Position numbers and translations under genes: made by a program. This document shows positions 15 to 41,223 of a stretch of 64,000 nucleotides of DNA, piece after piece. The notes under the pieces are model-generated. The model was not told the DNA's origin. It was given only the letters and a program-made list of their open reading frames with translations, and ran no database searches. Where the stretch lies: the IMG/VR virus record IMGVR_UViG_2744054962_000001; one strand, written 5' to 3'. Source of the stretch: a virus. Taxonomy: Duplodnaviria; Heunggongvirae; Uroviricota; Caudoviricetes. How positions within the stretch are numbered: the stretch's first letter is position 1; every line of letters starts with the position of its first letter.

Positions 15-3000
15 ATGGCGCAAAATGCGCCGTTCGCGATGCAGGCGTTAACAGATTCCTTCGTGAAGTTTCGTTCTGCTGGCTTAGATCCAACCGATGG
101 TTCTCTGAAGGCGCTGGTGGACTCCGTTGCTCGTTTTGGTGGTGATAGTGAGCTGTTGAAACGTGCGGCTGTGGCCGTTCAGCAGATGTCCGGTAAGGGC
201 GTTGTGTCAATGGAAGAGCTACGTCAGCAATTAGGTGAAGCCGTTCCTAACGCGATGCAGGCAATGGCAGACGCCGCAGGCATCACTATGGGGGAACTGA
301 CTAAAGCCGTTGCCAGCGGTACGGTTGAGGCAAAACAGGCGTTGTCTCTGATGTTTGTTGGTCTGCGTGCGGAGAATGAGAACGCAGCGAAAGACATGAT
401 GCAAACCTACACAGGTGCGCTGGCGCAACTTCAGACGTCATTCACGTTATTTGCTGATCGGGTTGGTCAGGCCGGATATCTGGATTCTCTATCGAAGGGG
501 ATGAAAGAACTGGCTTCAATCATGAATAGCGCCGAAGGGATTTCGTTTGCCAATTCTTTAGGCTCGGGGTTAACGACGGCAATCGATGGGTTGCGTCAGC
601 TTGCTCAATGGTTAGCAAAGAACCAAGAGCTGGTGATTAATCTCGGTAAGGTCGTGGCCGCGATGGTTGCGTTCAAACTGATGCGAGCAGGGATCATGGG
701 GGTAGTTGGCGCAGGCAGCCAGATGGTTAGCACCTTTGCCACGATGGCGACCGCCATACAGACTCCATTTAACCTCGGCGCTACAGCAGTAACCCGATTC
801 AATCGTGCGGCACGTATGGGGCTGGCTCCGATCCCCTCTCTTATTTTCGCCATCCGTGGGGCGATTACGGGGCTTAAAGGCGCTTTTGCTGGATTAACGG
901 CGTTCATTGCAGCAAACCCTATAGGGGCAGCATTTACAGTTGCCACTGTAGCTGTTGCTGGCCTAATCACGTACATGACCATGCTCCGCAGCGAAACTTC
1001 AAAGGTCGTTGACGAGATTAGGAAAATACCAGAGGCGATGACGGCGGCCAAACGTGCACAGATGGCGGAGTATAAAGCGCGTCTTGAGCAACAAATCACG
1101 CAAAAGGAACAAGAGTTAAAATCTGGCGAAAAGGTGGTTTATGGGCCGGGTATGGCCGGAACTACAGTAAAGATTAATCAGGATGAACGTAAGCGTATAG
1201 AAAATGAGCTAAATGACCTTCGTAAGAAACGCGATAAAACTACTGGGGCAATTGAACGCGGAGACATTGCTGTAGCCAAACGTCTTGCAAAAGATGCGGC
1301 AGAATCACAGATAGAGAAAATACGGGAAGAGAATAGAGACTTTGCGGCAACATTCGTGAAAGCCCGGCAGGAGGCTCTGGATAAGATCCAGAAAATCAAT
1401 GATGACGGTTCACTTTCAGATGACGAAAAGAACAAGCTATTGGCACCGTTACGTGAAACGGTAAACAAAAGCTATCTGGAGCCTGCGCAAAAACTGGTTG
1501 ATTCACTTTCTTCTCGTAAGAATGCTGTCGAGGGGCAAATAGCCACTCTTAATGATCAGCTTGAAAAAGCGAAAAAGGAAGGAAACACCGAGCAGATCAA
1601 GAAACTGCAAGGCAGTATTCGTGGTTATCAGGAGAATTTGGAAGTCGTCGCTCAGGAACTGACTCAGGCAGAGTTCGAGAGAGATAACGCTGCCAAAACT
1701 GGTAAGGGCGTAATGTCAAACCAGGGGACTGTTCTGGGGTTAGGTACAACTGATAAAGCTGCTCAGAAGGCGCTGGCGCAATATATGCGAAACCAGATGG
1801 ATTCTGCGACTTATCAACGTACTTTGCCTGACGGCACTCCGATGATGGACTTCGAAGGTAAGCCGATTATTGGGCCTAAACAACTCAAGACGCAGCTTAA
1901 TTTGCAGAAAGCATCCAGTGCCAGCTCTCTGGAGAAAATGAGCGATGAAGAGCGTGCCGCAGCCATTGCCGCACTTACTAAAGCTCGTGAACAGGATGCC
2001 GCAGCCGCCGAGAAAGCAGCCCAACGATCAGCTAATGCCTCGCAGCGTGCGGCCAAGAAAGAACAGGCAGCGCAACAGAAACTGGCGGCCGGATATCAGA
2101 AGGCTCTGGATAAAGCCGATCAGCTTATGGGGCAAATGGGTGAAAGCTCTAAGGCTACGGTATCGTTTGATCAGTCTCTTCGCGATACAACAAAATCGCT
2201 AACTGATTTGGCTAATGCGATTCCTAACGAGTTCATCACTCAAGAGATGATCGACAAGGCGAAAAAACGTCTTGAAGACCTCAAAAATGCGACACCTGAA
2301 TATCGCGAGATGTTTAATCGCCGCAATGTTGAGCAGATGATCTCCACTTGGGCACCGAAGGCGGATTCCATTATTAGTGCTGGCTATACGCCGTCTCGCG
2401 AAGATAAAGTTGCTGATTTCGAAGACACCTACAACCGCAATCTCAAAGCGTTGATAGAACTTCGTGATAAGGCGTCTGATCCTAAAGTTGTGGCGCTTTA
2501 TACAAAGAAAATCAATCAACTGATTGCTGCTGGCAATACCGCGCTTATTAAAGAGACGGGGACTGCGACGCAGAAGTTGGCACTGGAATACGAAAACCTG
2601 GCAGAGCAGATCGAAAGCACCTGGACTGATTTGTTTAGTGGCTTAACTGATGTCCTGACTGATTTCGTTATTAACGGGAAGATGAGCTTCTCCAGCCTGT
2701 CTCAGTCCATTTTGAAAGATATCACCAATATGGTCGTGAAGTCGCAAATCACGCTGCCTCTAATGAACATGTTGGGGATGGGAGCCACCGCAGCTGGTAG
2801 TTCACAGAGTGGTAATTTGCTCACCGGGGTTGCTTCCGCAGTTGCCAATCAAGGTGTGCGCATAAGCAACACTGTTAATGGCGACAAGTCGGTAGGAGAA
2901 GCCACGAAGGAGACGTCCAGTTCGGTAACTGGATTGGGGCAAACAACACAGCAGACCACCAGCGCAATTGGCACTGCAACAAATGCGATTGGTAGCTGGG

Positions 3001-3689
3001 TATCAGGGCTATTTGATAGCACTGAAGCCAAAGATGCCGAGACAAAAGCCGTGAAGGACTCCATCTTCTCGATGCAGAACCTCAGCTCTGTTACCGGCGC
3101 TCTGTCTGCCGCGTTTGCAATGCTTGGAGCTAATGCTTCCGGCTCTGGTAATAAGTGGTTGAATTTCGGCGCGACAGTTGCATCTGGTTTGGTTTCAGTA
3201 TGGGCTGGTGGTGGATTCGATGGATTGATGTCCGGTTCTTCTGGCTCAACTTCCGGGTTCAACAATCTGACCAGTTCTGCTGCCGATGGCACGAATGGTA
3301 TTCCTGCAATTCCGAAGTTTGCAAATGGTGGCATATTCGGAAAAGACGGCGTGATCCCGCTCCGGGCATACCAGAAAGGCGGTATCGCCAACTCACCTCA
3401 ATTGGCGTTGTTTGGGGAAGGCGATATGAATGAGGCGTATGTTCCATTGCCTGATGGTCGAACAATCCCTGTAACGCTCAGTACCGATGGTATGAGTGGA
3501 GGAGGAAATGTTCTTTCTCCGGTATCAATTGAGATCAACGTCCATAGTGACGGTAGCACAACTGAATCCGGCGATACAGAAAGCATATGGAACAATGCCG
3601 CTCAACGGATGAAAGCAATCGCGCTTGAGACTATCGCTCAAGAGAAACGCCCTGGCGGATCACTCAACCCAAACACTCAACGTAACTAA
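15..3689 (+). CDS. tail tape measure protein
   Basis: 1224 aa, long alpha-helical/coiled-coil body, hydrophobic segments, lambda gpH-like C-terminal region (GGIFGKDGVIPLRAYQKGGIANSPQLALFGEGDMNEAYVPLPDGRTIPV); sits immediately upstream of gpM/L/K/I/J-like genes. Confidence 0.85.
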   Translation: MAQNAPFAMQALTDSFVKFRSAGLDPTDGSLKALVDSVARFGGDSELLKRAAVAVQQMSGKGVVSMEELRQQLGEAVPNAMQAMADAAGITMGELTKAVASGTVEAKQALSLMFVGLRAENENAAKDMMQTYTGALAQLQTSFTLFADRVGQAGYLDSLSKGMKELASIMNSAEGISFANSLGSGLTTAIDGLRQLAQWLAKNQELVINLGKVVAAMVAFKLMRAGIMGVVGAGSQMVSTFATMATAIQTPFNLGATAVTRFNRAARMGLAPIPSLIFAIRGAITGLKGAFAGLTAFIAANPIGAAFTVATVAVAGLITYMTMLRSETSKVVDEIRKIPEAMTAAKRAQMAEYKARLEQQITQKEQELKSGEKVVYGPGMAGTTVKINQDERKRIENELNDLRKKRDKTTGAIERGDIAVAKRLAKDAAESQIEKIREENRDFAATFVKARQEALDKIQKINDDGSLSDDEKNKLLAPLRETVNKSYLEPAQKLVDSLSSRKNAVEGQIATLNDQLEKAKKEGNTEQIKKLQGSIRGYQENLEVVAQELTQAEFERDNAAKTGKGVMSNQGTVLGLGTTDKAAQKALAQYMRNQMDSATYQRTLPDGTPMMDFEGKPIIGPKQLKTQLNLQKASSASSLEKMSDEERAAAIAALTKAREQDAAAAEKAAQRSANASQRAAKKEQAAQQKLAAGYQKALDKADQLMGQMGESSKATVSFDQSLRDTTKSLTDLANAIPNEFITQEMIDKAKKRLEDLKNATPEYREMFNRRNVEQMISTWAPKADSIISAGYTPSREDKVADFEDTYNRNLKALIELRDKASDPKVVALYTKKINQLIAAGNTALIKETGTATQKLALEYENLAEQIESTWTDLFSGLTDVLTDFVINGKMSFSSLSQSILKDITNMVVKSQITLPLMNMLGMGATAAGSSQSGNLLTGVASAVANQGVRISNTVNGDKSVGEATKETSSSVTGLGQTTQQTTSAIGTATNAIGSWVSGLFDSTEAKDAETKAVKDSIFSMQNLSSVTGALSAAFAMLGANASGSGNKWLNFGATVASGLVSVWAGGGFDGLMSGSSGSTSGFNNLTSSAADGTNGIPAIPKFANGGIFGKDGVIPLRAYQKGGIANSPQLALFGEGDMNEAYVPLPDGRTIPVTLSTDGMSGGGNVLSPVSIEINVHSDGSTTESGDTESIWNNAAQRMKAIALETIAQEKRPGGSLNPNTQRN

Positions 3690-3694
3690 CTATC

Positions 3695-3716
3695 GACTGC
3701 CCCGACCGGGGCAGTC
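3695..3716 (+). terminator. stem-loop after tape measure gene (GACTGCCCC-gacc-GGGGCAGTC), no clear T-run
   Basis: 9-bp perfect inverted repeat read from sequence; could be attenuator or RNA processing site rather than terminator. Confidence 0.3.
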
Positions 3717-3731
3717 TCACAAGGATGTGAG

Positions 3732-4067
3732 ATGGAAAGACAAACGTTTAATTGGTATCCAGATTACGAATCTGAAAAAAGCGTAAAACCGAATGTAACG
3801 GTACTTAATTTTGGTGATGACTACGAGCAGCGACAGGCTCAAGGTCTTAATCGTATTAAAGAAGAATGGTCGTTAACCTTTACCAGATCATACAACGAAA
3901 TTAATGCAATCGATGACTTCCTGACTGAGCGAGCAGGCGTTGAGTCGTTCTATTGGGTTAATCCAAGAGGAAAACGGATTGTAGTTGTATGTGACAGTCA
4001 TACGGTCAAGCGATATCAGGGGTACTGTGTCTTAACTGCTACATTCAGACAAGTATTTGAGGCTTAA
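3732..4067 (+). CDS. minor tail protein (lambda gpM-like)
   Basis: 111 aa, position directly after tape measure and before gpL-like gene; size and synteny as in lambda. Confidence 0.55.
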   Translation: MERQTFNWYPDYESEKSVKPNVTVLNFGDDYEQRQAQGLNRIKEEWSLTFTRSYNEINAIDDFLTERAGVESFYWVNPRGKRIVVVCDSHTVKRYQGYCVLTATFRQVFEA

Positions 4068-4116
4068 GTATCTGGATAAGTAAGTACTAATTTACTATCA
4101 TTGTGGCGCTGACAGG

Positions 4117-4848
4117 ATGCTAGCGCCTACTTATTTCAAGGATGAAACAATGGGAATTAAAGCTGATATTCAGAGCTTATCTCCCTCTGCACTCATTGAG
4201 TTGTTCGTACTGGATATGTCGAACACAACTTCAGGGGGGAAGTTATTCTTCCACGCCGGAACAAACGAACTGATGCAACCGGTCGTCTGGCAAGGAGTGA
4301 CATACGAGCCGTGGCCAATCAAAGCATCAGGCTTTGACAAAACTGGCCAGGGAACGTTGCCACGTCCAAAAATTCAGGTATCGAACTTTGCCGGAACCGT
4401 CTCTGCGGAAGTTCAGGCGAACGACGATCTTGTTGGCTGCCGCATTATTCGCAAGATGACGCTGGCTCGCTTCCTCGATGCCGTTAATTTTAAAGACGGC
4501 AACCCAACAGCAGATCCAAACCAACATTTCCCGGATGAAATGTGGTTTATCGAACAGAAAACTCTCGAAACTCATCAGGTTGTCGAGTTTGAATTGTCCA
4601 GTGTGTTCGATTTGATGGGGGTGCAACTGCCGTATCGTCAGATCATTAAAAACACCTGCCCGTGGAAATACCGAGGGCCAGAATGCGGCTATACCGGTCC
4701 ATATTTCGACAAAAATAACCAGCAGACGTCTATGTCTGGTGCTGATTACTGCACAAAACGTTATGACGCCTGTAATGCGCGTCGGAATTATTTTGCCAAC
4801 GGAGTGATCCATTTTGGCGGGTTTATTGGAGCTACGCGATATGGGTAA
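4117..4848 (+). CDS. minor tail protein L-like
   Basis: 243 aa; C-terminal Cys cluster CPWKYRGPECGY...YCTKRYDAC as in lambda gpL; synteny. Confidence 0.65.
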   Translation: MLAPTYFKDETMGIKADIQSLSPSALIELFVLDMSNTTSGGKLFFHAGTNELMQPVVWQGVTYEPWPIKASGFDKTGQGTLPRPKIQVSNFAGTVSAEVQANDDLVGCRIIRKMTLARFLDAVNFKDGNPTADPNQHFPDEMWFIEQKTLETHQVVEFELSSVFDLMGVQLPYRQIIKNTCPWKYRGPECGYTGPYFDKNNQQTSMSGADYCTKRYDACNARRNYFANGVIHFGGFIGATRYG

Positions 4849-15629: not shown

Positions 15630-15765
15630 ACCACAAACAGCCAGCGTGTTGTTCTGCGATGGGGCTGAGCCTATCTATATCAGCAATAATGATGTAATGA
15701 CTGAAGAAACCGAACGCCAAATCCTTTTTCACAATACGATGGGAGAGAGGGTTTGTGGTTGGTGA
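15550..15765 (+). CDS. o-spanin (Rz1-like lipoprotein), overlapping Rz-like gene
   Basis: lipobox MLLPFIVSCMISGC; embedded/overlapping arrangement typical of Rz/Rz1; true start probably at internal Met. Confidence 0.5.
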   Translation: MRRAVKYVRKMLLPFIVSCMISGCVIKPQTASVLFCDGAEPIYISNNDVMTEETERQILFHNTMGERVCGW

Positions 15766-15772
15766 TGTCGAA

Positions 15773-15794
15773 GTTCCCCTCAAATGAGGGGAAC
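15773..15794. terminator. bidirectional hairpin between convergent spanin and toxin genes
   Basis: GTTCCCCTCA-aa-TGAGGGGAAC perfect 10-bp stem. Confidence 0.5.
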
Positions 15795-15797
15795 ACA

Positions 15798-16319
15798 TTA
15801 TTCTTCGAACAATTTTTCGATAGATTTTGTAGGATAGAACAAAGAACGCTCGTTGTTACCAACCAGCTGGATAAAGCCTAAACTTTTATAAAACGCCTTG
15901 GCTTTGTCATTTAACGCCTCAACGAAAAGTCCATGAATGCCTACAGCAAGAGATGCATTGTACACAACGCGCATTGCATGTGTTACAAGCATTGAGCCAA
16001 ATCCTTGACCTTGAAGGGACTTGTCCAAAGCCAGCCTACCCAAAGTAACACTTGGAACATTCCGATAAGGAACCTTCTTTTGTTTGCTTCTTGAAGGTAA
16101 GGACTCCTTTTCAAAACAACTACCTGACAAAGTGTAATATCCTAACACTTTTGGCCTTTCTTCTTGAGTGCAAAGCACATAAGCACGAAGAATTTTTCCC
16201 TCATGCTGCCTTTTTAAGTGGTTGGCTAAAAAGGCGTTTAGTGACTCTTCGCCGCAATCAAAACCGTTTAGATCATAATCTTTCTCTCCAGAGAAAATCT
16301 CTATCGTTGTATTGCTCAC
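15798..16319 (-). CDS. GNAT-family acetyltransferase toxin (TacT/KacT-like)
   Basis: 173 aa, GNAT motif A (QGQGFGSMLV) and paired with upstream DUF1778-like RHH antitoxin. Confidence 0.7.
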   Translation of the reverse strand: MSNTTIEIFSGEKDYDLNGFDCGEESLNAFLANHLKRQHEGKILRAYVLCTQEERPKVLGYYTLSGSCFEKESLPSRSKQKKVPYRNVPSVTLGRLALDKSLQGQGFGSMLVTHAMRVVYNASLAVGIHGLFVEALNDKAKAFYKSLGFIQLVGNNERSLFYPTKSIEKLFEE

Positions 16320-16326
16320 GAGTAAA

Positions 16327-16596
16327 CTACTCCATGCTTTTCAGACGATCAGCAGCTCGTTTCAGCTTGTCGTTCGGTGCCGGAGGATTGCTTATAGCGT
16401 CCATAACCAGATTCCAGGATTCTTCATTCAGAACTAGTCTACGGTGTTGCTCTATAACTTTCACGGCACGTTCAGATGCACTGCTAACCATAAACTGAGT
16501 AATGCTCTGGTTAGACATTGCGGCAGCTTCCTCGATGATGCTTTTATCGTCATCGGTTAATCTCAAATCGATGCGCTGCTTTTTTAGTGCTGACAT
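16327..16596 (-). CDS. RHH antitoxin (DUF1778/TacA-like)
   Basis: MSALKKQRIDLRLTDDDKSIIEEAAA... pattern; AGGAGG 7 nt upstream of this Met; ORF track extends to 16635 but internal start preferred. Confidence 0.7.
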   Translation of the reverse strand: MSALKKQRIDLRLTDDDKSIIEEAAAMSNQSITQFMVSSASERAVKVIEQHRRLVLNEESWNLVMDAISNPPAPNDKLKRAADRLKSME

Positions 16597-16914
16597 GTAT
16601 TCCTCCTGATGGCCGTGATGTAGGAAGGCCATCAATCTCCTCTGTTCAAACTGAGTTTTCGACTCAAAAATTACTTTAAAAGGCTATAGCCCATTACGTG
16701 TGCATTATCAAATTGTGTACGGCATATCACCGTACTTGTAATATAGAGGTCATTGTTACTTTTTTCAACAGACAAATACAAGCTATGATTGCCAATTGTT
16801 AATCACAACCTACCATTTAACCTTTACACCGCAGCCGTAGGCATTTAGGCTATATCACATATAAGAAAACAAGTTGTTTCAGACGATAATTATATACGCA
16901 AAGGGAACTCTCCA

Positions 16915-17583
16915 ATGACCAAGATCTTTGTGGTTGGCGGCACAAAGGGCGGGCCTGGCAAATCCACCGTTGCCCAGCAAATTGCCGTTTGCCTGAAAGT
17001 CAAAAAGAAGAAGAAGGTTTATATTACCGATATAGATATTCAGCGCACGACAACGAGCTGGTGTGAAGACCGTCGACAGAACGAAGACCTTGAGCTGATT
17101 CCTTTTGCATACGTTCAGGATGACATCATTAAGCACCTAAAATCGCTTCAGGGTAGAGCTGAGTTTGTAGTGGTAGATGCTGGTGGCTTCGACTCCGAAA
17201 TTCAGCGACAAGCGATGCTGATGGCTGACGTTATCATTATCCCGCTGCGTCCTAAGCGTCGTGATTTGAAATCTTTACGTGACATCGATCCTATTATCGA
17301 CAATGTTCGCAATGTAAACGATAAAGTGAAGGTCCGCGCGGTCATGAACCAGTGCCCGGCTTTGCCATCACAAGTGTCTCGCATTCTGGCGGCTAAAGAG
17401 ATTGTTGAGACGTTTGGAATCGAGTCTGCGCCAGTCAATCTATATAACCGCAACGTCTATGATGATGCGGAAGAGTCTGGTCGTTCTATCTTTGAAATGA
17501 CCGGTAGCGAGCGCGACAAAAAGGCGGAAGCCGAGTTTGAAGAATTTGTAGATTATCTGTTGAGTCTGGAGGAAGAAGAATAA
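16915..17583 (+). CDS. parA: ParA-type partition ATPase
   Basis: deviant Walker A GGTKGGPGKST; 222 aa; followed by small RHH protein. Confidence 0.8.
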   Translation: MTKIFVVGGTKGGPGKSTVAQQIAVCLKVKKKKKVYITDIDIQRTTTSWCEDRRQNEDLELIPFAYVQDDIIKHLKSLQGRAEFVVVDAGGFDSEIQRQAMLMADVIIIPLRPKRRDLKSLRDIDPIIDNVRNVNDKVKVRAVMNQCPALPSQVSRILAAKEIVETFGIESAPVNLYNRNVYDDAEESGRSIFEMTGSERDKKAEAEFEEFVDYLLSLEEEE

Positions 17584-17942
17584 TGTCCATGAAAATGGGT
17601 GACCTAGCAAAGCGCAAAGAGCCTGATGCACCGGCTAAGAACACAACTCCTTTGCGCCAACCAGTCAGACCACAAGGACGCCCGACTCGTGGCAAAGAGA
17701 AAATTAAAAGCCGCACTATGTCACTGGAAGACGAATACTTCGAGCTTCTGGAAATGATGAAGTTTATCCCTCGTTTCGAGAAGTTCACCCGCTCTGATGT
17801 GATTCGTGCTGCTATTTTCCATCTGGCAGAGAAGTCACCGCAGGAAATCGAGGACATCGTAAAGCTGAACGAGGCGATCACAGCTGCCGATGTCACGATG
17901 CGTACCGATGAAATTAAACGCGAGTTGATGAAGAAAGGTTAA
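17583..17942 (+). CDS. small RHH partition protein (ParG/omega-like)
   Basis: 119 aa, basic disordered N-terminus then predicted strand-helix-helix; translationally coupled to parA. Confidence 0.45.
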   Translation: MSMKMGDLAKRKEPDAPAKNTTPLRQPVRPQGRPTRGKEKIKSRTMSLEDEYFELLEMMKFIPRFEKFTRSDVIRAAIFHLAEKSPQEIEDIVKLNEAITAADVTMRTDEIKRELMKKG

Positions 17943-17945
17943 TAA

Positions 17946-17973
17946 TGTGGGCTGTCTAGCCCACATTATTTTA
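17946..17973 (+). terminator. rho-independent terminator after partition operon
   Basis: ATGTGGGCT-gtct-AGCCCACAT followed by TATTTT. Confidence 0.6.
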
Positions 17974-17984
17974 ATTAAAGTGGA

Positions 17985-18746
17985 GTGATAATTATGCATT
18001 CGTTAGTATTTGCATTTAAAAACATACTCAAGAATGTTATAAACATACTAGGGATGTTAAATATTTTTTTGTCTGTGAGGGTGAGGAGAAAAGATATAAA
18101 AGATAAATTAAAGGAACTTAACAAAGAAAAAGAACAATTAAAAAGCGAAGAAATTATTATTGATTTATACAAGAAAAAACTCGCATCTAGCAAGGGGAAA
18201 GCTAATGATAAAATCAAAGGAAAAATAATTCACTATATTATTGCTAGAGAGTTGGGGAATGATCCTGATAATGAAGATTTGCGACATAATCTTTTTACAA
18301 AGATAAAAGAATCAGAAGAACAGGTTGAAGTTCTGGTTCATCAAAGAGAAGTAAGTGAGCAGGCGAACAAAAAAGAAACGGTTGTCAATTTGTTTTTATT
18401 GTATGAAAAAAATAAATTGTTTAAAGCTAAGGGGTTGGCTGTGTTTCTTATAGTTATAAACTTAATTATAGTTGCGACTCTCGATCTTCCAGCTTGGTCA
18501 TTGATTATAAGTTTTTTTATTCTCTCTTTGATTATGTTGAAAGATCAGATACTTACTATTCGTGTCTCTAAAGGATATTTTGGCACAAGTGCGTATGAAG
18601 CGGTTCAATTGCTTAAATTCATCAGAGAAAATTCAGACAAATTTGACTCAGATGATAATGACGGTAGCCCACGACGGATATTGAATCCGAAGGGAACAAC
18701 AAAAAAATCAGACAACCTATTCGATAAAGGGTGGCAAAATGTTTGA
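17985..18746 (+). CDS. hypothetical membrane protein, AT-rich accessory gene
   Basis: 253 aa; N-terminal and central hydrophobic segments separated by Lys/Glu-rich coiled-coil; markedly lower GC than flanking genes. Confidence 0.4.
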   Translation: MIIMHSLVFAFKNILKNVINILGMLNIFLSVRVRRKDIKDKLKELNKEKEQLKSEEIIIDLYKKKLASSKGKANDKIKGKIIHYIIARELGNDPDNEDLRHNLFTKIKESEEQVEVLVHQREVSEQANKKETVVNLFLLYEKNKLFKAKGLAVFLIVINLIIVATLDLPAWSLIISFFILSLIMLKDQILTIRVSKGYFGTSAYEAVQLLKFIRENSDKFDSDDNDGSPRRILNPKGTTKKSDNLFDKGWQNV

Positions 18747-19161
18747 CCTTGACGCCATCACTAAGTTCTTAAATCAGTGTTTTGATCTACTTTTGCTCAA
18801 GCAGCCTTTAAGAACTGTTTTCGGAATACTGATTGGTTTCATTATTTTTGTTTTTGTTTACACGTTTAGGTTTGCGATAGCTCAAGATTTTTATGAAATA
18901 GATGGTGTGCATTACGCTGCATGTTTCGTCATCGGTGTTTTAGTTGTTCACACAAGAACATTTTTTGACGTTATCAAGGGCACCGCAGTTGATGAAGAAA
19001 TAGATAGTATGATCAGAGTTATTACGAAGCAGCCACACCTATCTAACCATCAAAAAAACATAATGATTGCTGAAATACTTCAAAAAGAAATTGCAGCCAT
19101 AAGTCAAAAGAGATTGGATAAAGTTGCACAAGAAATAACGGAGAAAAAGACAACTGATTAA
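18739..19161 (+). CDS. hypothetical membrane protein, AT-rich accessory gene
   Basis: 140 aa; two hydrophobic segments; start overlaps stop of upstream ORF (coupled). Confidence 0.4.
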   Translation: MFDLDAITKFLNQCFDLLLLKQPLRTVFGILIGFIIFVFVYTFRFAIAQDFYEIDGVHYAACFVIGVLVVHTRTFFDVIKGTAVDEEIDSMIRVITKQPHLSNHQKNIMIAEILQKEIAAISQKRLDKVAQEITEKKTTD

Positions 19162-19332
19162 TTTAATTACCTGTTTCTGTATATAAATAATAAGTAACTT
19201 ATTAAATATATATACGGAAGCAGGTCTTTTAAAAGACACCCACCAGAACAACTCCCTTCCGTTTCCACTTCCAAAAACTGCCACCAGTCGCTATCATCCG
19301 CTCATTGTGATAAGTAAGTAACTACCTACCAG

Positions 19333-40343: not shown

Positions 40344-40943
40344 TTATGCGCATTTCGCAATATCTTTGCGGCGTTTAATCAGTTTCTCCGCAATTTGCTC
40401 TATTTCGTTGAAATCTTTCGAGACGCTGTTTCGAAGCGCCAGATTCCATTTACTCAAAGTTCGGGCATTTTGGACAATTTGATCGCCCTCTTTAAGTCGT
40501 CCGTTATTCATGAGCCATTCAGCCACATCAGCCCAATCCCAGAGAGGAGACTGGCCTTTTATGCGTTGTACAGGGCTAGGGAAGTCGCCGCTTCCGCGCT
40601 TACCGTCTTTGAGCAACGCCACTGCCTGGCGAGACAGGTCTGTCAGTTCCGCGATATCGCTTAAGCCCACAAGAGCCGAGTCGACGGATTCAACAATTGC
40701 ACCGATACCGGCTGATTCAATATTGTCGACCGCAGATGCGATAGCTGCATCAAGTGATTGTGCTTCGCGGTCAAATTCTACATAGACGGAGTTTCCATAT
40801 GCGCAAATTAGCGCATCGTCACAGCCGTTTTGGTACAGCGCGTCTTCCAGTCCTTCCGTCTCATACGATACGCCTGAGAGCGTCAGAGTGAAGTTATAAA
40901 GCGCCATAGTTTTCCTTTGAAGATAGTTGGACAGTTTCTGCAA
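40344..40943 (-). CDS. HTH-containing protein, second gene of reverse-strand two-gene operon (candidate antitoxin/regulator)
   Basis: probable start at MALYNF (about 40907) preceded by AAAGGAAAAC; predicted HTH around GLSDIAELTDLSRQAVALL. Confidence 0.4.
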   Translation of the reverse strand: MQKLSNYLQRKTMALYNFTLTLSGVSYETEGLEDALYQNGCDDALICAYGNSVYVEFDREAQSLDAAIASAVDNIESAGIGAIVESVDSALVGLSDIAELTDLSRQAVALLKDGKRGSGDFPSPVQRIKGQSPLWDWADVAEWLMNNGRLKEGDQIVQNARTLSKWNLALRNSVSKDFNEIEQIAEKLIKRRKDIAKCA

Positions 40944-40967: not shown

Positions 40968-41192
40968 TCATTTACAACGATCAACCATTCGTTTGATCTG
41001 TTTGGCATGGTTTTCGGGATTACCCGGAGTCGACCATACGCTCATTTGGTGAGTTTTGTGTTCACCTTCTGGATTACCGCATCGCAGTCTGCAAAAACAA
41101 TGTGCAGCACCACCAGCAGCTACCCAGATCCAGCCTTTACTTAATGCATAGTCAATGGCTGCTTGAATATGCTTATTCGGATGTTGCTTCAT
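40968..41192 (-). CDS. small Cys/His-rich protein, first gene of reverse-strand operon (weakly HicA-like)
   Basis: 74 aa; GW...GAAHCF...STPGNPEN...IKRMV spacing loosely resembles HicA/YcfA pattern; not verified. Confidence 0.3.
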   Translation of the reverse strand: MKQHPNKHIQAAIDYALSKGWIWVAAGGAAHCFCRLRCGNPEGEHKTHQMSVWSTPGNPENHAKQIKRMVDRCK

Positions 41193-41223
41193 TCGCCTCC
41201 GATAATAGTATTCTATTCACAGT

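Follow-up and report, generated by a model that had tools for sequence, protein, structure and literature searches.

The DNA analysed here, a 64,000-nucleotide stretch of the IMG/VR virus record IMGVR_UViG_2744054962_000001 (hereafter the window), carries two minus-strand genes between its lysis cassette and its partition locus. We propose that they form an AtaRT/KacAT-type toxin-antitoxin operon, carried as accessory cargo on an SSU5-like phage-plasmid of Escherichia coli and probably serving the persistence of this element as a plasmid. The identity of the toxin-antitoxin pair and its biochemical mechanism are close to certain, and post-segregational killing is, by analogy with other systems, somewhat favoured as its main role. 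The pair itself is already known, since the same sequence has been annotated, and was published in 2023 with the same interpretation, for phage Cyrano/pLF82, where it counts as a toxin-antitoxin moron of the KacT type. Beyond the Cyrano annotation and an earlier reading of the window by a model (hereafter the original prediction), the present analysis adds corrected gene boundaries, a promoter, an operator, and a cargo slot with alternative occupants.

Profile search of the toxin against Pfam gave E-values of 5e-8 to 8e-8 for Acetyltransf_7 and Acetyltransf_1, and Acetyltransf_7, _1 and _10 all scored over their curated cut-offs. Moreover, a phmmer search against the PDB revealed full-length matches to AtaT (PDB 6ajm, 6gts and 7chd), with an E-value of 1e-79, and to KacT (PDB 5xun and 5zgn), with an E-value of 1e-74. 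The two sets of bit scores are nearly equal, 269 for AtaT and 253-255 for KacT. These matches bear out the assignment of the toxin as a GNAT acetyltransferase. Pairwise alignment with AtaT of O157:H7 is gap-free at 69.4% identity, and therefore the AtaT residue numbers transfer directly. The acetyl-CoA motif A of the family (Q/R-x-x-G-x-G/A) reads LQGQGFG at residues 102-108 and includes G108, and the catalytic Y144 is kept within the segment AFYKSLGF, corresponding to Y144 of AtaT and Y145 of KacT. Mutagenesis of AtaT has shown that G108 binds acetyl-CoA and that the G108D mutant is non-toxic, and that Y144 is catalytic, with an attenuated Y144F mutant (PMC7595197). A loss of the acetyl-CoA-binding residues had been named as grounds for giving up the toxin assignment; G108, motif A and Y144 are all there.

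In addition, most of the tRNA-contact residues of AtaT are kept in the toxin (F30, H34, R37, S76, S78, K79, K81, K82, Y85, R95 and K165), whereas four contacts are changed from AtaT to the toxin of the window, namely R40E, N41G, R71K and K77R. Residues S76, K77, S78 and K79 of AtaT contact the acceptor stem, and their conservation is limited to close relatives, KacT among them (PMC7595197). The toxin of the window has S76, S78 and K79 unchanged and an arginine in place of K77. Together with the identity and the bit scores, this pattern places the toxin, as far as sequence can tell, in the AtaT/KacT subgroup, termed ‘clade A’ in PMC9177977.

The protein encoded by the upstream gene matches the Pfam family TacA1 (PF08681) over residues 8-86, with an E-value of 5.7e-26. 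Against the PDB it matches KacA (5zgn_A, E-value 7e-42) and AtaR (6ajm_C, E-value 1e-40), in both cases aligned from residue 1, with identities of 80.5% to KacA and 76.1% to AtaR. This agrees with its original assignment as a DUF1778-like ribbon-helix-helix (RHH) antitoxin. KacA needs R8, D10 and R12 for operator binding (PMC6698736), and these three DNA-contact residues are kept in the antitoxin. Both genes of the pair are under purifying selection, with ratios of nonsynonymous to synonymous substitution rates (dN/dS) of 0.04-0.10: compared with a 94%-identical allele, the toxin has a ratio of 0.06 and the antitoxin one of 0.04, and deeper comparisons of the antitoxin gave 0.08-0.10. Such selection gives indirect support to growth arrest by the toxin and its neutralisation by the antitoxin.

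The table of open reading frames (ORFs) shows two adjacent minus-strand frames, as originally predicted, but both the upstream end of the pair and the junction between its genes differ from that description. Since the homologues align from residue 1 and a Shine-Dalgarno sequence AGGAGG (16607-16602) lies 5 nucleotides (nt) before the ATG at 16596, the antitoxin start is assigned to this ATG; in RefSeq relatives the antitoxin is likewise annotated as a 270-nt gene. At position 16635, previously taken as the end of the pair, lies the TTG from which the ORF would reach its greatest possible length. A 102-residue antitoxin starting at that TTG was rejected, as the homologues start at the ATG and the AGGAGG is found there; the additional 39 nt (16597-16635) are a leader hairpin read as codons. 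This hairpin, TGATGGCC-N12-GGCCATCA (16634-16607), has a stem of 9 bp and precedes the AGGAGG, with 1 nt in common. It is present in both the minimum-free-energy and the centroid folds of the leader and is kept in the GS04 allele. As for the junction, the two genes were said to overlap by a few bases, whereas the sequence reads TAG-TTTACTC-GTG, with the antitoxin stop at 16329-16327, the spacer at 16326-16320 and the toxin GTG at 16319-16317. An overlap through an earlier toxin start was also rejected, as no in-frame start precedes this GTG and the frame is closed by a TGA 24 nt upstream. The closest Shine-Dalgarno-like sequence to the toxin, GGAG (16333-16330), lies 10 nt before the GTG, within the last antitoxin codons.

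Upstream of the antitoxin gene, the hexamers TTGAAA and TATATT make up the best promoter-like match of the region, and both are kept in the GS04 allele. The predicted operator starts 4 nt downstream of the predicted -10 hexamer and thus would span the expected transcription start. Its half-sites and 7-nt spacing equal those of the crystallised 27-bp KacAT operator, AAATGTACGGTTATTAACCGTACATGA (PMC6698736), and the same half-sites and spacing are found upstream of chromosomal ataR, of an IncF-plasmid homologue and of a second phage-plasmid allele. With one mismatch allowed, the motif has a single match in the window, compared to a chance expectation of 0.06. To follow the locus across relatives, we used 80 IMG/VR loci whose ParA is at least 88% identical to that of the window, 79 of them with both flanks, and located Rz, ParA, toxin and antitoxin in each. 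Of the slot-mapped loci, 40 of the 42 with the pair have the operator, whereas the 37 without the pair all lack it. A palindrome at the promoter, together with the conserved RHH residues, suggests that the operon is autoregulated. A literature search for the operator motif yielded nothing relevant.

The predicted leader is about 135 nt long, compared to about 47 nt for ataRT. As a whole it folds with no unusual stability (z -1.2), and neither the leader nor the intergenic regions matched an Rfam family at threshold (the best hit, with an E-value of 0.03, scored far below the gathering cut-off); the presence of a structured RNA element there was rejected on both counts. The pairing of AGGAGG with ATG for the antitoxin, as against the weaker GGAG with GTG for the toxin, fits an excess of antitoxin, as does the 60:35 ratio of antitoxin to toxin transcripts in E. 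coli LF82. The latter values come from LB cultures of LF82 lysogens, in which toxin and antitoxin transcripts lie 35-fold and 60-fold, respectively, over the prophage background; the same study of LF82 prophages lists both genes as morons expressed in lysogeny (PMC9928086).

Comparison with public sequences defined the element that carries the pair. The 6.5 kb around the pair is 97-98% identical in nucleotide sequence to Escherichia phage Cyrano and to numerous E. coli plasmids that are circular, non-mobilizable and typed IncFIB, compared to about 80-84% for Salmonella phage SSU5 and Klebsiella relatives. Over the surrounding backbone the identity to Cyrano is 96-98%. Cyrano and the window are collinear across most of the window, with other segments variable, and the RepA of Cyrano is encoded in the collinear part. 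Given the identity to Cyrano and the IncFIB plasmids and the collinearity with Cyrano, the window can be assigned to an SSU5-like phage-plasmid of E. coli. Carriage on an extrachromosomal replicon agrees with the IncFIB-typed plasmid relatives and the adjacent parA, and low copy number is presumed from the plasmid type. The DNA of the pair is 100% identical over 843 nt to that of pLF82 (NC_011917), i.e. phage Cyrano (OV696614), where it occupies the same slot, and the Cyrano toxin protein is identical to that of the window. In Cyrano the two genes are CYRAN_26, annotated as ‘KacT acetyltransferase-type toxin’, and CYRAN_27, annotated as ‘putative antitoxin’. At a nucleotide identity of at least 90%, the pair occurs in 145 plasmids of PLSDB, and the phage-plasmid pair is found in 152 records among 5,426 complete E. 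coli genomes. The phage collection holds it in only three complete records, all SSU5-like E. coli phages.

The location of the pair between a lysis cassette and a partition locus, as first described, is supported by PHROGs profiles, which identify an endolysin and two Rz-like spanins on one side, and by parA on the other, across a gap of 318 bp. In blastn comparisons with 13 related loci, homology to the window ends at 15746-15762, within the last o-spanin codons, and, irrespective of the cargo, begins again at 16808-16817, some 107 nt upstream of the parA start codon ATG. Among the 79 loci with both flanks, this toxin-antitoxin family is the commonest occupant of the slot (42 loci), 35 loci hold other cargo and two are empty (Table 1). 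The interval between the spanin gene and parA is thus where the late phage operon meets the module for plasmid maintenance, a seam that is reused for accessory cargo. The original prediction had called the placement beside lysis genes notable; the location itself holds, but a special functional coupling with lysis does not follow, because the interval is a recurrent slot for cargo exchange across the 79 loci. No repeats common to both cassette borders, as would be left by site-specific insertion, were seen, and hence the cassettes are most simply taken to be exchanged through homologous recombination in their conserved flanks.

The two alleles of the pair found in the slot differ unevenly. Compared with the window, the second allele (L061 and L083) has 83-87% amino-acid identity in the antitoxin and 60-63% in the toxin. 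Synonymous divergence is saturated in the toxin and only about 1.1 in the antitoxin, and the blastn alignment in L061 covers the antitoxin gene only. This suggests that the toxin has been replaced behind a conserved antitoxin and operator across alleles.

The alternative cargoes gave no usable assignment in searches against Pfam and PADLOC. The commonest of them, a forward two-gene cassette in which the second gene overlaps the first, is the one carried by SSU5 itself (L002, 3212-4368; also L003, 2759-3879, and L040, about 2826-4500), and is a candidate for an uncharacterised toxin-antitoxin or defence pair. The single reverse gene of 397-403 codons (L053, L055 and L058) encodes a protein whose C-terminal region includes RSKLVHGR, a HEPN-like Rx4H motif; its sole Pfam match is a weak one, NTF-like, with an E-value of 0.004. 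The 183-residue cargo protein of L075 and L079 is acidic. A near-perfect palindrome, TGATTGCCAATTGTTAATCA, occupies 16786-16805, at the slot's right edge and some 110 nt upstream of parA; it adjoins two plus-strand promoter-like sites and may be a par operator or a centromere element.

Table 1. Features of the toxin-antitoxin locus and of other segments of the window, with the occupants of the cargo slot in related loci (aa, amino acids; counts out of 79 loci with both flanks).
Feature	Position	Strand	Basis	Loci
GNAT toxin gene, AtaT/KacT-like, 173 aa, GTG start	15798-16319	-	Pfam, PDB phmmer	
TacA/DUF1778 RHH antitoxin gene, AtaR/KacA-like, 89 aa, ATG start	16327-16596	-	Pfam, PDB phmmer	
Spacer TTTACTC, antitoxin stop to toxin GTG, 7 nt	16320-16326	-	sequence read	
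Translation-initiation region of antitoxin	16602-16634	-	sequence, inverted repeat	
Predicted operator palindrome GTACGG-TGATATG-CCGTAC	16717-16735	.	match to KacAT operator	
Predicted sigma-70 promoter TTGAAA-17 nt-TATATT	16768-16740	-	consensus match, 10/12	
Variable cargo cassette of SSU5-like backbone	15763-16807	.	blastn vs 13 related loci	
Slot occupant: window-type pair, toxin at least 93% identical				28/79
Slot occupant: second allele, same family and orientation; toxin 60-63%, antitoxin 83-87% identical				14/79
Slot occupant: forward two-gene cassette, 127-140 aa and 249-258 aa, several very divergent versions				30/79
Slot occupant: single reverse gene, 397-403 aa				3/79
Slot occupant: reverse 183-aa gene				2/79
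Slot occupant: none, 69 bp between flanks				2/79
G+C-rich hairpin GTTCCCCTC-AAAT-GAGGGGAAC	15773-15794	both transcripts	terminator scan, inverted repeat, fold	
parA (small ParA)	16915-17583	.	profile searches	
119-aa ORF, start at last base of parA stop codon; Cyrano ‘RelE/ParE putative toxin’	17583-17942	+	ORF table	
Variable segment after par genes, no homology to Cyrano	17946-19165		Cyrano comparison	
Homologues (99-100%) of Cyrano ‘HicB’ and ‘HicA’	40347-40910 and 40971-41195	-	Cyrano comparison	

In the proposed mechanism, the sigma-70 promoter would give rise to a bicistronic minus-strand mRNA, on which the antitoxin is read first, from a strong AGGAGG/ATG, and the toxin after the spacer, from the weaker GGAG/GTG, so that antitoxin would be made in excess. 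RHH dimers of the antitoxin would bind the operator across the transcription start via R8, D10 and R12. In AtaRT and KacAT, a T-A4-T hexamer of toxin and antitoxin represses the operon and occludes the toxin (PMC6698736). By analogy, such a hexamer, and with it conditional cooperativity, is expected for the pair in the window, where it would repress the operon and block the active site of the toxin. Free toxin, in turn, would use acetyl-CoA, bound via G108 and with Y144 as the catalytic residue, to acetylate charged tRNAs at their amino group and thereby stop translation. AtaT and KacT both modify Gly-tRNA as well as tRNAs that carry hydrophobic residues, and the initiator Met-tRNA is a further substrate of AtaT (PMC7595197, PMC9177977). 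The toxin probably has, by analogy, the same targets.

The element would replicate as a low-copy plasmid, with the pair beside parA. Once it is lost from a cell, the presumably protease-labile antitoxin would no longer be made, and the cell would be arrested or killed; the killing would also put incompatible competitors without the pair at a disadvantage. We favour post-segregational killing, which the original prediction had called probable, with an edge over incompatible competitors, because the presumed low-copy plasmid carries the pair only 318 bp from parA. An experimental precedent is the distant GNAT pair GmvAT, for which Lon-dependent stabilisation of both the Shigella plasmid pINV and a test vector, exceeding 100-fold at 21 °C, has been shown (PMC6519299). 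A 70%-identical homologue that lies beside RepB and VapB on an IncF plasmid also supports this role.

Several observations weigh against post-segregational killing. We found in the literature consulted no plasmid-stabilisation experiment for any pair of the AtaT/KacT clade, and the GmvAT precedent is distant, the presumed pair being 37% identical in the toxin and 27% in the antitoxin, with GmvT in a different clade. Among the 79 related loci, 37 lack the pair, holding other cargo or none, and therefore the pair is dispensable for maintenance. Moreover, chromosomal ataRT (locus L004, 1477-2277) is present in about 30% of E. coli, with 1626 copies in the 5426 complete genomes. Its operator core is the same and its antitoxin 76% identical, so that it could cross-repress the operon or cross-neutralise the toxin, thereby blunting the killing. 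Genomes with both copies number at most 71, compared to about 90 expected if the two were independent, a crude count uncorrected for phylogeny that indicates at most mild avoidance. Finally, R40 and N41 in helix α1 of AtaT are replaced by glutamate and glycine in the toxin of the window, so its tRNA preference may differ from that of AtaT.

An alternative reading, which we consider unlikely, is that the pair serves mainly in inter-element conflict, by abortive infection or by exclusion of incompatible SSU5-like phage-plasmids, and that segregational stabilisation is secondary. In abortive infection, an incoming phage would stop host transcription, the labile antitoxin would decay, and the toxin would halt translation. 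The sharp boundaries of the slot and its at least five alternative cargoes, one of them with the HEPN-like Rx4H motif, resemble defence or moron islands. The expression of the pair in the lysogen as a moron is consistent with such a role, and diversifying conflict fits the finding of two toxin alleles that have diverged deeply although the antitoxins and operators before them are conserved. However, neither toxin nor antitoxin matched an entry of PADLOC-DB v2 at an E-value of 0.1 or below, which led us to reject a catalogued anti-phage defence system, and phage defence by a GNAT/DUF1778 pair was not found reported in the literature consulted. Selection within the alleles is ordinary purifying selection on both genes, and since the alternative cargoes have no recognisable function in Pfam or PADLOC, ‘defence island’ is a putative label. 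We hold an extended form of this alternative to be equally doubtful, in which the slot would be a dedicated conflict hotspot, the pair would be kept mainly as a weapon, toxin alleles would be swapped behind the conserved antitoxin and operator, and the other cassettes (the pair of 127-140 and 249-258 residues, the 400-residue Rx4H protein and the 183-residue protein) would be equivalent toxin-antitoxin or defence systems.

Still less probable is a host-benefiting stress or persistence moron, in which stochastic or stress-induced toxin activity would render lysogens transiently non-growing and tolerant to antibiotics or macrophages, as reported for TacT and KacT. Growth arrest and antibiotic tolerance are described for KacT (PMC9431474), and the identical pair resides in the macrophage-adapted strain LF82 and is expressed there in culture; yet a study of LF82 persistence makes no mention of the pair, and both its linkage to the partition locus and the homologues in plasmid replication or maintenance regions fit selection at the level of the element better. 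The least probable reading, that of a selfish hitch-hiker that maintains itself in the slot without net effect on the phage-plasmid in many hosts, where chromosomal AtaR cross-neutralises the toxin as an anti-addiction factor, can draw on the abundance and similarity of chromosomal ataRT, on the rough deficit of two-copy genomes given above and on the cross-neutralisation between chromosomal and plasmid GNAT-RHH pairs seen in Klebsiella, but most non-cognate GNAT-RHH pairs tested did not cross-neutralise (PMC9431474), the toxin dN/dS of 0.06 implies that its activity matters, and no other cargo occupies the slot as often as the pair.

A G+C-rich hairpin is placed between the convergent o-spanin gene (stop at 15765) and toxin gene (stop at 15798-15800). 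It has a stem of 9-10 bp, including a 10-nt perfect inverted repeat, and its RNA fold has a z-score of -4.0 on the plus and -3.7 on the minus strand, with none of 200 shuffles as stable. The T-rich tail ACATTATTCT is found on the plus (lysis) strand only, as is the call of the terminator scan. The original prediction of a bidirectional hairpin that separates the pair from the spanin genes thus holds for the stem, which occurs in both transcripts, and fails for termination on the minus strand, where tail and terminator call are lacking. The hairpin is likely the intrinsic terminator of the lysis operon, and would also be the 3' end structure of the toxin-antitoxin transcript. As each type of cargo brings its own hairpin after the spanin gene, it is part of the cargo cassette and not of the lysis module.

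Two further loci of the window correspond to genes annotated in Cyrano as toxins or toxin-antitoxin components. The ORF that starts within the parA stop codon has neither Pfam support as RelE/ParE nor sequence relatives in the PDB; its sole match is a weak RHH-like one in NCBIfam, and it is more likely a centromere-binding partner of ParA than a toxin. The homologues of the Cyrano ‘HicB’ and ‘HicA’ matched no HicA or HicB family of Pfam, and PHROGs labels the former as an excisionase/transcriptional regulator, so that the HicAB annotation looks unsupported. Lacking Pfam support, neither locus was counted as a redundant addiction system. The variable segment after the par genes contains two AT-rich ORFs, 17985-18746 (253 residues) and 18739-19161 (140 residues), which encode hydrophobic stretches and have no Pfam match.

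As a discovery the pair carries little weight, given that few toxin-antitoxin families have been characterised as well as its own in structure and biochemistry. The practical gain is that the annotation can be corrected, with the antitoxin start at 16596 and no gene overlap, and that the operator and promoter can be annotated. In addition, the interval between the spanin gene and parA is a sharp-edged slot that can be mined for uncharacterised cassettes. Since about 30% of E. coli carry an ataRT of the same operator core, the SSU5-like phage-plasmids offer a natural system for testing cross-talk and anti-addiction.

Compared to known systems, the pair is by every sequence criterion a GNAT/DUF1778 type II toxin-antitoxin of the AtaT/KacT subgroup, and its identities of 69-80% to the characterised AtaRT and KacAT proteins confirm that the family was correctly described as a known one. 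Like AtaR-AtaT of O157:H7 (PDB 6ajm, 6gts, 6gtp and 7chd), it has the antitoxin gene first and a short non-overlapping spacer (6 nt in ataRT, 7 nt here). The two pairs also share the identical RHH strand KKQRIDLRL and the GTACGG-N7-CCGTAC core of the operator. By contrast, ataRT is chromosomal, between panM and livJ, its shorter leader lacks the extra hairpin found at the Shine-Dalgarno sequence of the window, and the DNA identity between the two is only about 66%. KacA-KacT of Klebsiella pneumoniae (PDB 5xun and 5zgn) provides the closest solved antitoxin, with R8, D10 and R12 in common and with identical operator half-sites and spacing. Nevertheless, its operator spacer reads TTATTAA in place of TGATATG, Q70 and R77 of KacA are N70 and K77 in the antitoxin of the window, as in AtaR, and its genomic context differs from the phage-plasmid of the window. 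The Cyrano genes CYRAN_26/CYRAN_27 differ in annotation, where the antitoxin coding sequence begins at the upstream TTG and spans 306 nt, whereas RefSeq and homology support 270 nt.

Among plasmid-borne systems, GmvAT of Shigella is likewise made up of a GNAT toxin and a DUF1778-type antitoxin, and its plasmid, pINV, is large, low-copy and equipped with par systems. Apart from their low identity to the pair, the presumed gmvAT genes (CP0059/CP0060 of pCP301) overlap by 10 nt in the pCP301 annotation, and GmvT is a clade D toxin specific for Gly-tRNA, whereas AtaT and KacT of clade A have relaxed specificity (PMC9177977). Similar to the pair in the window, phd-doc of P1 is a type II addiction module on a phage living as a low-copy plasmid, and it has been listed among the persistent plasmid-type genes of the P1-like phage-plasmids (PMC7969092). 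However, Doc, a Fic-fold kinase, and Phd belong to families unrelated to those of the pair, and phd-doc is persistent in P1, whereas the pair described here is variable cargo of its element.

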